Part shown: one piece after another, positions 49,939 through 53,710 of the stretch
How the letters are laid out: every line of letters begins with the position of its first letter
Position numbering within the stretch: position 1 is the first letter of the stretch
Assembly: GCA_010015805.1 (NCBI GenBank)
Contig: ML978129.1
Span: forward strand, 1,240,001 to 1,304,000
DNA length: 64,000 nucleotides
Reading direction: 5' to 3'
Source of the DNA: Rhizodiscina lignyota
Taxonomy: Eukaryota
Position numbers and translations under genes: made by a program
The notes under the pieces: model-generated
What the model was told of the DNA's origin: nothing
What the model saw: only the letters and a program-made list of their open reading frames with translations
The model's database searches: none

Positions 49939-50053
49939 TGGATTGCTTTTAATGGATCGCTTGAGCGACACGACGTCACAGCCTTGGAGCAGCTGCGTAT
50001 CTTCCAGCAATGTGCGAGGACGTCGATTGCCTGCTGACTTCTCGATCGTCTTG

Positions 50054-51061: not shown

Positions 51062-51824
51062 GACAAGTGATTTCCTCTATGTAGAGTCTTAGAATGATCG
51101 ATTGAAACTTTCGAAAGTGGGAATATCATCATAGAGCCGGTTCAAGGGTTAGGGTTGCGTTGGTTACCTACTTAACTCCGGTAATCCCCCCCGAGGTCAA
51201 CCCACTCGGCTGTGAGATTGTATTGTGTACAAACCCGAGCTCAGGTTGACGAGGCTTCTGCTCCAAGTTCAACCATAGTTACGCAACAGTTTAATAGAGA
51301 AAGGCCCTTCTTCGACAACAGCAGCACCATACATTGCACATACGTGCATGTTGCAGTACAGCCTTCATCCAGAAAAGTGCACAAGGTCCGAGGTTCCATT
51401 GCTGAGGGTTTATAGCTTCCGCTGACTCAAGGGGCGCTGCTCTCAGATCCTGTTTCTTTGGCTGTTGCCCTTCTTCTATCTCGTGAAACTTCTGCGTGAA
51501 GTTGGATCATTCAAACCGTTGCTCTTCTTTCATGAAAGCGAGACTGTATGCAAGATATGCCGACTGTCTTGTGCTTGAGTTAAGAAGGCCCCCTATTCCT
51601 GGAACCAGACGGGTGCTCATACAAGTGGGTGCATGACCGCCTGTGACGATGGGTGCGGAGATACCCATTGGTACGGGCACATAGGTACCTGGAATTGGGT
51701 GCTCTGTCGACACAAGGTTCGAATCATCATCTGTATTCACCTTGTTCGACGCAAAACACATGTGGAATGGGCACGGTATTGTATAGAGAAGAAGATGTAT
51801 TCAAGACTATCTAATTTACATACT

Positions 51825-51898
51825 GAGTTCGTCTTGGTTTCACCCCGAAGGGCTACTCACACCGGACAGCACGTGAAGCTGCGAACTCGTCGTCCGGC
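51825..51898 (-). ncRNA. HDV-like (CPEB3-type) self-cleaving ribozyme
   Basis: Minus-strand RNA GCCGGAC GAC GAGUUCGC AGC UUCACGU GCU GUCCGGU GU G AGUA GCCC UUCG GGGU GAA ACCAA GA CGAACUC. It gives a 7-bp P1 with G1.U wobble, an 8-bp P2 with one bulged A, a 3-bp P3, L3 UUCACGU, a single-pair P1.1, P4 with UUCG loop, and J4/2 A-C-C-A-A with putative catalytic C at 51837. Confidence 0.88.
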
Positions 51899-52447
51899 AT
51901 GCAGAGGGTTGATAGAGGGACCGTACCAGCCGGTGTGCATACCAACCCTCCGCACCTAGCGTATTTCAGGGAGCGGTCAGGGCTAAAGCCGAGCAGACGT
52001 GCACCTTACTTACTAGCAAAAAAACAAAAACGCCAGCGCCATGCAGAGGATTGACAGAGGGACCGTACCAGCCGGTGTCATGCCAAACCTTCCGCATCTA
52101 GCGTATTTCAGGGAGCGGTCAGGGCTAAAGCCGAGCAGACGTCACCTTACTTACTAGCTTGACGCGACACCAAACGCCAAAAGCAAGAAAGCAAAAACTC
52201 CAAAACACCAAAACACCAAACGCCAGAAAGCAAGAAAGCAAAAACTCCAAAACGCCAAAATGCCAAAACACCAAACGCCAAAAAGCAAGAAAGCAAGAAA
52301 GCAAAAACGCCAAAACGCCAGCGCCATGCAGAGGAAAGGCAGAGGGAAACCGTAAAAGCCGGTGTGCATGCCAAACCTTCCACATCCAACGCTTTTCAGG
52401 GAGCGGTCAGGGCGAAAGCCGAGCAGACGTGCACCTTACTTGCTGGC
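51898..52447 (-). repeat. Three imperfect tandem copies of a ~120-nt double-hairpin unit (51898-52017, 52040-52158, 52325-52447)
   Basis: Shared core TTCAGGGAGCGGTCAGGGC(T/G)AAAGCCGAGCAGACGT and CATGCAGAGG ends on the + strand; G.U pairs indicate the minus strand is the folded RNA. Confidence 0.92.
52159..52324. repeat. Low-complexity spacer of irregular 7-9 nt modules (AAAGCAAG, CAAAACGC, CAAAACAC, AAAAACTC)
   Basis: Directly visible; almost no T on + strand. Confidence 0.9.
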
Positions 52448-52469
52448 GTGCGCAACACCCAAAAGAAAG

Positions 52470-52748
52470 TCAGTACTCACCTCGAAAGTCGATCACGTCG
52501 ACAGCCTTGTGGCCGCCAGTGACCCTCCTCAACCTCGCCGGAATCGAGTCGTCCGGCATCACCCCCTGCTGCTCGCCGATGTGGCGGTAGATCGCCGCCG
52601 CCGTCTCGGTGTCGAATTTGGTGTCGTAGTGCTGTCGGAGCCACCCCTTCCGTTCTCGCTCCATCGCCCACGCGTCGTGGGCCTTTCGTGCTCGGCGTCG
52701 GTCGGCGCGCTTGGCGAGCCACAGGCGGAAACGTCTGATGACGTTCAT
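52470..52748 (-). CDS. Orphan 92-aa Arg/Trp-rich basic protein (may instead splice at GTGAGT 52480)
   Basis: ATG in CAACATG context 126 nt below a TATA box; MNVIRRFRLWLAKRADRRRARKAHDAWAMERERKGWLRQHY...; G+C 160/240 by hand count over 52501-52740, visibly above the flanks. Confidence 0.6.
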   Translation of the reverse strand: MNVIRRFRLWLAKRADRRRARKAHDAWAMERERKGWLRQHYDTKFDTETAAAIYRHIGEQQGVMPDDSIPARLRRVTGGHKAVDVIDFRGEY

Positions 52749-52829
52749 GTTGATTGTTATGATTGTTGAGTTTGATGGATGAAAAAAATGCTTGCAAGTC
52801 AACGAGTACGGTTGCTGCAAGTGAAGAGT

Positions 52830-52920
52830 TCTAGAGAAAAAGAAAGAGGGAGATGGGAGGGAGGGAAAGGCCCCTTTATAGTCGGGCGGGAGCAGGTCGC
52901 AACCACATGTAATCACATGT
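52830..52920 (-). promoter_or_regulatory. Pol II core promoter for the orphan ORF/ribozyme module
   Basis: TATAAAG at 52880-52874, followed by a CT-rich box (CCTTTCCCTCCCTCCCATCTCCCTCTTTCTTTTTCTC); upstream direct repeat CACATGT-aat-CACATGT (52904-52920). Confidence 0.6.
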
Positions 52921-53414
52921 ACGATTGCCTCCTCTCCCTTCTCTGATGACTTGCCTCTGTGTGATACGTCCCAACATGAATAATTGCGGGATTATAAAGT
53001 CGTTGGCCGCCAACACGGCTGTAACTCTCAACGGCTAATAGCTCTTCCACCTCACAGGAATCGAGACTACCTCTGAAAGTTCAATTGGATATTCTCTGGA
53101 GAGTATTAAACAACAGCAGGAGACAGAAAAACTTGTATCCTACGTTATCTATAGAGGCTGTACATAGGTGCTGGCCAGCAGTATTGGCAAAAGTCCATGT
53201 CCTTTCAAGACAGATCAGATCTGTTGAGTCCAAAACGGTGAACCTGCGGAGAATTGGACTGGACTGGACTGGTCGGACTTGATCGATCTTAACGGTGCTG
53301 CTTATTCAATCGAATTCGATAAAAGTTCGTTGGTATCAAGGCGTTGAGTTGCGGGATGTGAGCGATTTCCGGCAAGCGCACGAGACATGCAACGGCGTCC
53401 GTGTTCTGTGACAT

Positions 53415-53710
53415 CGAGAAGCAAATCTTCTAAGCCAGAGTGGACAAGCTACCCCCTGATAATCCCGAACACAAACTTATCGCAAGCGTATAAGGTATGT
53501 ACCGAGGTCTCTCTTCCACGACAACGAGAAGCGAATCTTCTGTGGTGGGCAAAGCAAGCTACTCCCCAGCAAATTCGAATGCAAACTCATCGCAAGCGTA
53601 TGATATTTGTAACGAGGTCTCTTTTCCATGATAACGAGAAGCGAATGTTCTAAGGCAGGTTGGCCAAGCTGCTCCCCAACCCCCTCGAATGCAACTTCAC
53701 AGACGCGAGA
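53415..53710. repeat. Degenerate 110-bp tandem repeat, ~2.7 copies
   Basis: CGAGAAGC(A/G)AAT(C/G)TTCT recurs at 53415, 53525 and 53635; CAAGCT recurs with the same period, and ATCGCAAGCGTAT and CGAGGTCTCT occur in copies 1 and 2. Confidence 0.85.

Follow-up and report, generated by a model that had tools for sequence, protein, structure and literature searches.

In the 64-kb stretch of DNA analysed here (the window), an HDV-like ribozyme of a known class appears to occupy the 3' trailer of a small orphan gene, where it would cut the transcript directly after a strong hairpin. We assign this reading a probability of about one half. An initial annotation had presented the same region as a candidate new system. 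It does not form a conserved entity: the ORF and the repeat units were found nowhere else in our searches, and the ribozyme class has been published (PMC5640933).

Organization of the locus

All parts of the locus, namely the promoter elements, the ORF, the repeat units and the ribozyme, are carried by the minus strand (Table 1). The initial annotation had listed a TATA/CT-box promoter, a GC-rich, Arg-rich ORF of 92 amino acids, three repeat units and a ribozyme, and each of these was recovered, the two promoter elements by direct reading. The TATA-like box at 52880-52873 presumably functions as a promoter, by analogy with fungal promoters, and the CT-rich tract at 52870-52831, with T+C of 68-74% in the two 50-nt windows spanning it, would be the start-site region.

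Table 1. Features of the locus (coordinates within the window)
Feature	Coordinates	Strand	Basis or remark
TATA-like box TATAAAGG	52873..52880	(-)	direct reading; 125 nt 5' of ATG
CT-rich tract, CT-box-like, between TATA-like box and ORF	52831..52870	(-)	direct reading
92-codon basic orphan ORF	52470..52748	(-)	ORF listing; ATG at 52748
Repeat unit 1: conserved intron-like half, weakened hairpin 2 (52385-52326)	52326..52447	(-)	unit alignment
U/G-rich spacer, minisatellite of 8-nt period	52161..52325	(-)	TRF, composition
Repeat unit 2: GTAAGT..CTGAC..TAG half (52154-52098), hairpin 2 (52097-52041)	52041..52160	(-)	alignment, motif scan
Short spacer GGCGCTGGCG, then T5 and T7 runs	52018..52040	(-)	direct reading
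Repeat unit 3: GTAAGT..CTGAC..TAG half (52013-51956), hairpin 2 (51955-51899)	51899..52017	(-)	alignment, fold
HDV-like self-cleaving ribozyme (by sequence), fungal loop-E / extra-C variant	51825..51898	(-)	descriptor, covariance model, covariation
Ribozyme P1	51898-51892 with 51867-51861	(-)	7 pairs
Ribozyme J1/2	51891-51889	(-)	
Ribozyme P2	51888-51882 with 51831-51825	(-)	
Ribozyme extra C between P2 and P3	51881	(-)	
Ribozyme P3	51880-51878 with 51870-51868	(-)	3 pairs
Ribozyme L3	51877-51871	(-)	7 nt
Ribozyme loop-E strands	AGUA 51857-51854 opposite GAA 51841-51839	(-)	
Ribozyme P4, UUCG loop	51852-51850 with 51845-51843	(-)	
Ribozyme J4/2 C	51837	(-)	invariant in 11/11 sequences
First poly(A)-type hexamers past ORF stop: TATGTA 51822, AAATTA 51817, AATACA 51801	51796..51822	(-)	hexamer scan

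The locus is single-copy in the contigs of run X1, and the sequence 3' of the ribozyme is likewise unrepeated there at 80% likeness. These contigs cover the stretch in three pieces of even depth that break at the unit repeats; the even depth argues against a high copy number. Run X1 probably draws on the very reads behind the assembly and thus gives no independent proof of the array. A dispersed repeat is located 120 nt upstream of the TATA/CT promoter in the same contigs, and the region is therefore a dynamic one. No tRNA was found between positions 50000 and 55000. The locus is bordered by the RMI1/SDR-like genes, of which the SDR-like one is downstream, and by the Fringe-like gene.

The ORF (52748-52470) encodes 16 Arg and 5 Lys residues, has a GC content of 0.64 (GC3 0.82), and looks like a coding sequence, as its codon statistics match those of real genes of the window. 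The in-frame codon log-odds is 0.198 bits per codon, with an off-frame maximum of 0.171, and real in-frame windows of the same 64-kb stretch score 0.19 +/- 0.08. The hexamer GTGAGT (52480-52475) overlaps the last codons. An exhaustive phmmer search of 1.84 billion representative proteins revealed no homologue; its match P0001, a 943-aa TPR-repeat protein within whose repeats a 29-residue stretch of the ORF falls, was judged spurious. Comparison with Pfam gave no family above the cut-off, with only RyR and Dehyd-heme_bind below threshold, a word-based protein search returned nothing, the Atlas search had no usable match, and the viral contigs searched contained no relative. The AF2 single-sequence model of the product has a mean pLDDT of 64 (low confidence) with a helix at residues 3-41.

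Identification of the ribozyme

With the stricter HDV descriptors, the site at 51898-51825 is the sole one in 128 kb, that is, both strands of the window. On shuffled sequences descriptor A gave 0.28 matches on average, with at least one match in 15 of 60 shuffles, and descriptor B gave 0.05, with 3 of 60. A loose HDV descriptor was non-specific (20 matches in the window). A metagenome scan with a 15-base motif from L3 and the loop-E side yielded 119 loci. A Watson-Crick P3 is present in 15 of them, where about two are expected, and 13 also have a P1 of 6-7 pairs. From ten of these metagenome relatives, with the window sequence left out, we constructed a covariance model, R1. Applied to the 64 kb, it produced one match, the window ribozyme, with 68 bits and an E-value of 4.5e-16; the 119 motif loci comprise 12 with 72-90 bits, a single one with 22 bits, and 106 that fall short of E 0.01.

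In the alignment of these ten relatives and the window sequence, 18 of the 22 helix pairs change on both sides, a number reached by none of 500 shuffles, and 90.9% of the cells are paired, versus 35-52% in slid controls. Thirteen columns outside the search pattern are invariant among the relatives; the window retains 11 of them, and the other two are both sides of one P3 pair, swapped from C-G to G-C. Folding of the ribozyme alone is no better than that of shuffles on either strand. The Rfam HDV families (HDV_ribozyme, HDV-F-prausnitzii, CPEB3 and others) gave no match at gathering score in the window, nor did any HDV family at E-values up to 10 on 2 kb or on 126 nt. This non-match says little, since the published fungal variants violate older descriptors (PMC5640933).

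The predicted fold is a nested double pseudoknot in canonical order, with all helices of the window sequence fully paired and the predicted cut 5' of G51898. The first P1 pair, at the cleavage site (alignment columns 1 and 38), is of the purine-pyrimidine type that HDV-like ribozymes have there: it is G.U in eight sequences, including the window, and G-C in two; it is unpaired in one, the decayed copy L006. For a P1.1 mini-helix between L3 and the bases following P1, one Watson-Crick pair (C51875-G51860) could form, with a would-be U.U as its neighbor, in columns that are invariant and partly set by the search pattern. The extra C is present in all 11 sequences, although for the ten relatives its column was set by the search pattern. 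The search pattern did not include the GAA side of the loop E, where each column is identical in at least 10 of the 11 sequences. The AGUA and GAA strands flank the covarying P4, and their opposition corresponds to the loop-E motif. C51837 is the equivalent of C75 and, by analogy only, may have its catalytic role. The L3 of the CPEB3 HDV-like ribozyme is identical in all 7 nt to that of all 11 family members, the window included. The mammalian CPEB3 ribozyme differs from the window in being intronic and in having neither a loop-E P4 nor an extra C, and the Rfam CPEB3 model misses the window.

Among the closest known systems are the fungal HDV variants described by Li and Breaker (2017, BMC Genomics 18:785, PMC5640933), which cleave in vitro. 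That study counted 230 copies, spread over 26 species and with "widely variable gene associations"; a 2026 preprint confirmed four more variants from A. nidulans. The published variants share with the window the nested double pseudoknot, an extra nucleotide between P2 and P3 that is in most cases a C (C51881 here), and the loop-E motif in place of part of P4, and they too occur in fungal-type genomes beside unrelated neighbor genes (PMC5640933). They differ in the pair at the cleavage site, which is typically C-G in that paper, where text and table give opposite orders (R-Y versus Y-R), and is G.U in the window, in a register supported by covariation. As judged from its sequence, the element at 51898-51825 is thus a genuine HDV-like self-cleaving ribozyme of this published fungal class, an assignment made by description from the text and Table S1 of PMC5640933. 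That paper gives no function for the variants and reports no upstream hairpin or repeat, and in the later literature we found no work assigning them a function.

Relatives of the ribozyme and mobile sequences

In five independent metagenome insertion contexts (L013, L036/L105, L096, L106 and L006), homology begins exactly at the 5' end of the ribozyme. Identity there is 89-100% in the ribozyme and 67-91% downstream, and upstream it is at background (8-53% by a semi-global measure). As far as these sequence comparisons go, the close relatives are mobile sequences with the ribozyme at their 5' edge and with the retroposon signature of variable upstream and conserved downstream sequence, and the window ribozyme probably derives from a family of ribozyme-headed mobile elements. 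The conserved, repeated downstream body of a retroelement is present in L013, L036, L096, L106 and L006, and absent at the window. The ribozymes that head non-LTR retrotransposons (R2, L1Tc, RTE; PMC6765202) have a fold identical to that of the window; in contrast to them, the window ribozyme is followed neither by a reverse transcriptase nor by a body that is conserved or repeated, and it comes after a gene, while they head one. The initial annotation had spoken of the reverse of the usual role; this reversal is less clear-cut, given the 5'-edge role in five insertion contexts of relatives.

The position of the ribozyme in its relatives makes a relic insertion a live alternative. A ribozyme-headed element could have inserted beside a pre-existing tandem repeat and left only its 5' ribozyme recognizable, the ORF transcript ending before the ribozyme and no functional link existing between the two. 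We regard this as somewhat unlikely, but as a serious rival. Besides the five contexts with homology from the ribozyme 5' end onwards, it agrees with the variable gene associations of the 230 published copies in 26 species (PMC5640933) and with the dispersed repeat 120 nt upstream of the promoter, which marks the region as dynamic. However, the sequence 3' of the window ribozyme is unlike the downstream parts of all relatives and is unrepeated in run X1 at 80% likeness, and all helices and invariant core bases are intact, yet no element body is recognizable. Moreover, nothing in the 325 nt downstream continues the array. The similarity of the post-ribozyme sequence to the array is at chance level (13 of 200, 233 of 300 and 139 of 300 shuffles reach the score), and there is thus no indication of an array interrupted by an insertion. 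Finally, the 16-bp hairpin ends exactly where the junction lies.

Another origin had been offered in the initial annotation, namely an RNA replicon that bears a ribozyme and has become endogenised, or an element similar to a retrozyme, either of which would encode an RNA-binding protein of its own. All that agrees with it is that a basic ORF, repeats and a ribozyme lie together on one strand. The trait of retrozymes and viroid-like RNAs, a ribozyme in each repeat unit or in both polarities, is absent in the window: there is one ribozyme in one polarity, with no second copy and no other ribozyme family. Units 1 and 2 carry no ribozyme, and hence unit-length RNAs can be neither excised nor circularised. 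The putative promoter is of the DNA type (TATA/CT), the locus is single-copy in run X1, the ORF has no relatives among 1.84 billion representative proteins or in viral contigs, and the three viral contigs with the ribozyme motif obtain no score with model R1. We consider this origin extremely improbable.

Repeat units and hairpins

The three tandem units have a mean column identity of 86%, and a 33-nt core occurs three times, versus zero expected from 100 shuffles. They are specific to this locus, with no relative found anywhere else. Of the U/G-rich spacers of the initial annotation, only the one between units 1 and 2 (52325-52161) is long; it measures about 165 nt, contains 2% A on the minus strand, and was resolved by TRF into 19 copies of period 8 at 52172-52320. 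The spacer between units 2 and 3 has 23 nt, and none lies between unit 3 and the ribozyme.

Each unit had been described as a covarying double hairpin, a description that holds in part. Hairpin 2 of unit 3 is a perfect helix of 16 bp (-30.9 kcal/mol, z -5.45, 0 of 200 shuffles); the same hairpin is weaker in unit 2 (-23.3 kcal/mol, z -2.53, 4 of 200) and in unit 1 (-18.1 kcal/mol, z -1.98, 7 of 200). The first halves fold no better than shuffles (z from +0.4 to +1.0), nor do whole units on either strand. Only 2 of 25 pairs change on both sides, a number reached by 52 of 500 shuffles and not significant. The last paired base of the unit 3 hairpin is the base before the predicted cut (position -1), and in a joint fold the hairpin forms independently of the ribozyme helices. 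A hairpin of comparable strength ending at -1 occurs in the window alone, 1 of the 11 family members; it is consequently not a family trait, and we rejected it as such. The relatives L060 and L106 are also paired up to -1, but at shuffle level (z -0.95 and -0.54).

The first half of each unit could also be read as a spliceosomal intron of 57-58 nt (GTAAGT, a CTGAC branch point and TAG), the array then being a series of intron-exon pieces that were duplicated within the 3' region of the gene. Such a reading does not conflict with the others, and we find it rather unlikely. Conservation within the unit is highest in the first half, which nevertheless folds no better than shuffles, and the pattern GTAAGT-N20-50-CTGAC-N6-30-YAG matches in 64 kb at units 2 and 3 only. 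However, 0.30 matches per window are expected by chance, and the two matches are copies of each other. Unit 1 has lost both splice dinucleotides (GT to GC and AG to GG) but retains the pairing of the ends, which points to a stem rather than to splice sites. Due to 1-nt indels, the units do not keep a common reading frame.

Transcript model and the 3' end

The minus strand shows the order stop codon, ribozyme, first poly(A)-type hexamers. None of 14 poly(A)-type hexamers occurs between the stop codon and the ribozyme end (52470 to 51825), and three fall within 30 nt past the ribozyme. The list of 14 comes from yeast work and is thus weak evidence here. The ribozyme follows the stop codon at a distance of 572 nt, which is long for a fungal 3' UTR.

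In the model that we prefer, the ribozyme in the 3' trailer of the orphan gene, a single Pol II unit would comprise the TATA and CT-box promoter, the small ORF, an A-poor trailer of 570 nt made up of the locus-specific tandem repeat and the minisatellite, and the ribozyme at the far end. Transcription from the promoter would run through, and the ribozyme would fold and cut 5' of G51898. The upstream product would close with a blunt hairpin of 16 bp, made by its last 57 nt, and bear a 2',3'-cyclic phosphate there; the downstream product would begin with the ribozyme and carry the first poly(A)-type signals. Cleavage may thereby uncouple the ORF RNA from its poly(A) site, resulting in attenuation or in an alternative hairpin-closed 3' end, and/or may stop read-through before it reaches the following gene on this strand, which lies 760 nt further downstream.

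This trailer model is favored by the codon score of the ORF, equal to that of real genes in the window, by a trailer that lacks the 14 hexamers and includes a spacer with 2% A, followed by three hexamers no more than 30 nt past the ribozyme, and by the hairpin ending at -1. Against it stand the 572-nt distance from the stop codon, the T-runs of the spacers, which could end transcripts earlier, the yeast origin of the hexamer list, the role of the ribozyme as the 5' edge of mobile sequence in close relatives, the occurrence of a strong hairpin at -1 in 1 of 11 family members, and the lack of a match to any Rfam HDV family, even at E 10 on 126 nt. As neither the ORF nor the units have a relative, selection on the arrangement cannot be shown.

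Two precedents also speak for the trailer model. In mammalian Clec2 genes, the 3' UTR contains a discontinuous hammerhead between the stop codon and the polyadenylation signal, the order predicted for the window, so that cleavage removes the signal from the mRNA (PMC6765202). It belongs to another ribozyme class and another kingdom; in the window the poly(A) signal is deduced from hexamers only and a hairpin is situated at the predicted cut. Theta ribozymes, minimal HDV-like ribozymes that adjoin phage tRNA genes (Kienbeck et al. 2024, PMC10879173), cut next to the 3' end of the tRNA and so act as 3'-end makers; the predicted cut in the window is likewise placed directly behind a structured RNA. 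In contrast, the window has no tRNA but a plain hairpin upstream, and a full-size ribozyme with a loop-E P4 in what would be a eukaryotic Pol II context.

A further interpretation, likewise put forward in the initial annotation, is a dedicated poly(A)-independent 3'-end formation, in which self-cleavage after the blunt hairpin would give a stable, non-adenylated and translated mRNA. The geometry suits it: the perfect 16-bp hairpin is paired right up to -1, hairpin quality drops away from the ribozyme (z -5.45, -2.53 and -1.98), and the trailer is A-poor and without poly(A)-type hexamers from the stop codon to the ribozyme. Phage HDV-like ribozymes trim the 3' ends of structured RNAs (PMC10879173). 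However, the arrangement occurs once, with no conservation to show selection, and with hexamers following within 30 nt, ordinary polyadenylation of the uncleaved RNA is equally possible. This interpretation is doubtful. We know of no eukaryotic mRNA that ends by self-cleavage directly after a blunt hairpin.

Implications

The locus offers a concrete case, in which an intact ribozyme follows the stop codon of a small gene and precedes the first poly(A)-type signals, and a perfect hairpin ends at the predicted cut. At least one lineage of this ribozyme type appears to head a mobile sequence; mobility of this kind would account for the varied gene neighborhoods of the fungal variants. With low probability, the locus may represent a fungal mRNA ended by an HDV-like ribozyme, hairpin-capped, bearing a cyclic phosphate and non-adenylated; this would be the first cellular role of the variants, as 3'-end makers or as insulators between same-strand genes. 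If the 3'-end-making role is not true, the window holds one more copy of a known ribozyme beside an orphan gene; if it is true, it would be a new way of ending a eukaryotic mRNA.

Identification of the ribozyme

A double pseudoknot of HDV type can be drawn for the element at 51898-51825 (see the table), with predicted cleavage 5' of G51898. A loose HDV descriptor was non-specific (20 rows in the window), and stricter descriptors retained this site as the only one in the window. Since dinucleotide-shuffled windows also yielded matches (descriptor A, mean 0.28, at least one in 15 of 60 shuffles; descriptor B, mean 0.05, 3 of 60), the fold alone is suggestive rather than decisive. Rfam gave no match at gathering scores, and none at E ≤ 10 on either 2 kb or 126 nt.

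Features of the locus and of the predicted ribozyme fold
Feature	Position	Strand	Remarks
All parts of element	52880-51825	minus	sequence read directly
TATA-like box	52880-52873	minus	TATAAAGG
CT-rich tract	52870-52831	minus
ATG	52748	minus	context TCAACATGA
92-codon ORF	52748-52470	minus	TGA at 52472-52470
Repeat unit 1	~52447-52326	minus
Repeat unit 2	~52160-52041	minus
Repeat unit 3	~52017-51899	minus
74-nt ribozyme element	51898-51825	minus
P1			GCCGGAC with GUCCGGU; first pair G.U
J1/2			GAC
P2			GAGUUCG with CGAACUC
One extra C			after P2, before P3
P3			AGC with GCU
L3			7 nt
P4			CCC-UUCG-GGG between AGUA and GAA strands
J4/2			includes invariant cytosine C51837
Next gene, short-chain dehydrogenase-like	51061-50648	minus	adh_short E 0.027 on exon 2, weak match; ATG 51061; exon 1, MAPTGLAILIGAGPST; GTAAGT...TAG intron 51013-50933

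A scan of metagenome contigs with a 15-base motif derived from the window (C, L3, and GUGAGUA at fixed spacing) produced at least 119 loci. Among the matches listed, a Watson-Crick P3 was present in 15 of 119 (about 2 expected by chance), and 13 of these 15 also had a P1 of 6-7 pairs; the 13 form one family, in which the P1, P2, and P4 sequences differ yet compensate mutually. Two of the loci, L036 and L105, are identical across all 573 nt compared (the ribozyme with 250 nt on each side) and look like a single locus, and the ribozyme sequences of L061 and L062 are identical. The covariance model built from ten of the 13 family loci, with the window sequence left out, matched the 64-kb window once, at 51898-51826 (68 bits, E 4.5e-16). 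As a control for the bases fixed by the search pattern, the same model was applied to the motif loci: among the matches listed, 12 of 119 scored 72-90 bits, one (L089) 22 bits, and 106 fell short of E 0.01.

In the alignment of 11 sequences, window included, pairing holds in 90.9% of cells, and both sides have changed in 18 of 22 pairs; none of 500 shuffles matched any of five covariation measures, and slid controls were 35-52% paired. The unpaired P2 cells trace to the L013 group, set one column off by MAFFT. Thirteen invariant columns lie outside the search pattern and the window retains 11 of them, the two departures being both sides of one P3 pair (C-G to G-C). The cleavage-site P1 pair is G.U in eight sequences, G-C in two, and unpaired in one. 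The loop-E strand GUGAGUAG (51860-51853), invariant in all 11 family members, doubles as a perfect 5' splice-site-like hexamer; another GTGAGT, at 52480-52475, overlaps the final ORF codons.

The HDV-like ribozyme proposed in the initial annotation is thus genuine, yet of an already published class, the fungal HDV variants (230 copies in 26 species) for which Li and Breaker (2017; PMC5640933) describe "widely variable gene associations" and in vitro self-cleavage of both copies assayed. Four more Aspergillus nidulans variants are reported active in a 2026 preprint. Three features set the PMC5640933 variants apart from the general consensus: an additional nucleotide, mostly C, at the P2/P3 junction, a typical C-G cleavage-site pair, and a loop-E partly replacing P4. 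Judged by these described features, the window element resembles the variants in its extra C and in the AGUA and GAA strands around P4, but differs in having G.U rather than C-G at the cleavage site in its register. On this sequence comparison we conclude that 51898-51825 is a probable member of the fungal-variant class.

Genomic context of the relatives

The loci L013, L036/L105, L096, L106, and L006 share 89-100% identity in the ribozyme and 67-91% in the 250 nt downstream; over the 250 nt upstream, identity does not rise above background (8-53%, semi-global measure). Because the downstream sequence is alike and the upstream sequence unrelated in five contexts, these loci look like copies of a ribozyme-headed mobile sequence, a signature also carried by R2, L1Tc, and RTE as described in PMC6765202. 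TTAGGG-type repeats occur about 200 nt upstream of the L013 ribozyme, and no Pfam domain was found in three ORFs tested in the 872 nt downstream of L036. Two lineages stand apart from the mobile-type loci. In L047 and L062 the ribozyme lies 30 nt past the stop codon of a long DUF4216 ORF on its own strand; in L056 (1011-869) it lies 65 nt past that of a long, weakly Pox_A32-like ORF (E 0.0006, below the Pfam cut-off), again on the same strand. A poly-G run of variable length directly precedes the cut in the DUF4216-ORF lineage (L047:854-968, L062, L061).

A less likely but serious explanation of the window element is that it is itself the inert remnant of a mobile element headed by such a ribozyme. 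Similarity of the window to all of the at least 119 loci listed is limited to 51831-51899. An endogenised replicon or retrozyme, as had also been suggested, is very improbable: the ORF has no relative in viral contigs, and further copies of the ORF, units, ribozyme, or downstream 500 nt are absent at 80% likeness from the contigs of the one sequencing run that contains this genome.

The orphan ORF and its surroundings

The ORF looks coding, because its codon log-odds of 0.198 bits/codon, from training on six Pfam-supported ORFs of the window, equals that of in-frame windows of the training genes (0.19 ± 0.08) and exceeds the off-frame maximum (0.171). Its GC3 is 0.82, against 0.46-0.61 in neighbouring genes. 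No Pfam family scored above cut-off, and neither a word-based protein search nor the Atlas gave a match; the sole match among 1.84 billion protein representatives, a TPR-repeat protein, was judged spurious. AF2 without alignment predicted a long basic N-terminal helix (pLDDT 64). The ORF probably represents a true orphan gene.

Around the locus lie housekeeping genes of ordinary fungal type, encoding DNA ligase, RMI1, a Fringe-like transferase, and an ammonium transporter. Upstream, a dispersed repeat (53003-53100 and beyond) begins about 120 nt before the TATA box; at least five other contigs of the run that contains this genome match it over 55-94 nt at 8-14 differences, and its word depth climbs to about 1000. 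A 110-nt unit occurs twice in tandem, the copies 74% alike (53445-53664), in the gene-poor interval upstream of the promoter.

The repeat array

Units 1-3 share a 33-nt core (three matches, none expected) and a mean column identity of 86%; units 1 and 2 are separated by a T/G-rich minisatellite with an 8-nt period and 2% A. The first half of the unit is best conserved, and its folding is no better than that of shuffles (z +0.4 to +1.0). This half resembles a fungal intron in units 2 and 3 (57-58 nt; GTAAGT, CTGAC, TAG). The window contains no other match to the pattern, and 0.30 matches would be expected by chance. Unit 1 has both splice dinucleotides altered and the pairing of the two ends kept.

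The quality of hairpin 2, the second half of each unit, declines with distance from the ribozyme, from unit 3 (-30.9 kcal/mol, 16 perfect pairs, z -5.45, 0/200 shuffles) through unit 2 (z -2.53, 4/200) to unit 1 (z -1.98, 7/200). Since the two compensated pairs among 25 are equalled by 52 of 500 shuffles, the covarying double hairpins of the initial annotation, otherwise largely right, find only partial support. The array is a repeat specific to this locus, and strong structure in it is confined to the hairpin next to the ribozyme. The final paired base of that hairpin, U51899, immediately precedes the predicted cut, and in co-folding it does not compete with the ribozyme helices. A strong hairpin ending at this position occurs in the window alone among 11 family members.

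GGCGCTGGCG directly follows units 1 and 2, and then T-runs (52325-52300, T4-T5; 52040-52018, T5 and T7) that could be taken for Pol III-type terminators; A/B-box and tRNA-like features were not detected.

Possible role in transcript 3' end formation

Of 14 poly(A) hexamers of yeast type, none lies between the ORF stop codon and the ribozyme end, and the first ones lie just past it (TATGTA 51822, AAATTA 51817, AATACA 51801); the ribozyme thus appears to come after the stop codon but ahead of the earliest poly(A)-type signals. The same-strand dehydrogenase-like gene starts 760 nt downstream of the ribozyme. The order of stop codon, ribozyme, and poly(A) signal, here as hexamers only, is that described for the Clec2 3'-UTR hammerhead, in which cleavage takes away the poly(A) signal and reduces expression (PMC6765202). 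Phage theta ribozymes, which are HDV-like, are described as generating the 3' end of a structured RNA that lies upstream (PMC10879173). The boldest reading, that hairpin and ribozyme would form a 3' end in place of polyadenylation, is rather unlikely. Most likely, with a probability of about one half, the ribozyme would cut transcripts of the ORF unit just past the unit-3 hairpin, and this cut would uncouple the transcripts from both the poly(A) region and the gene downstream.
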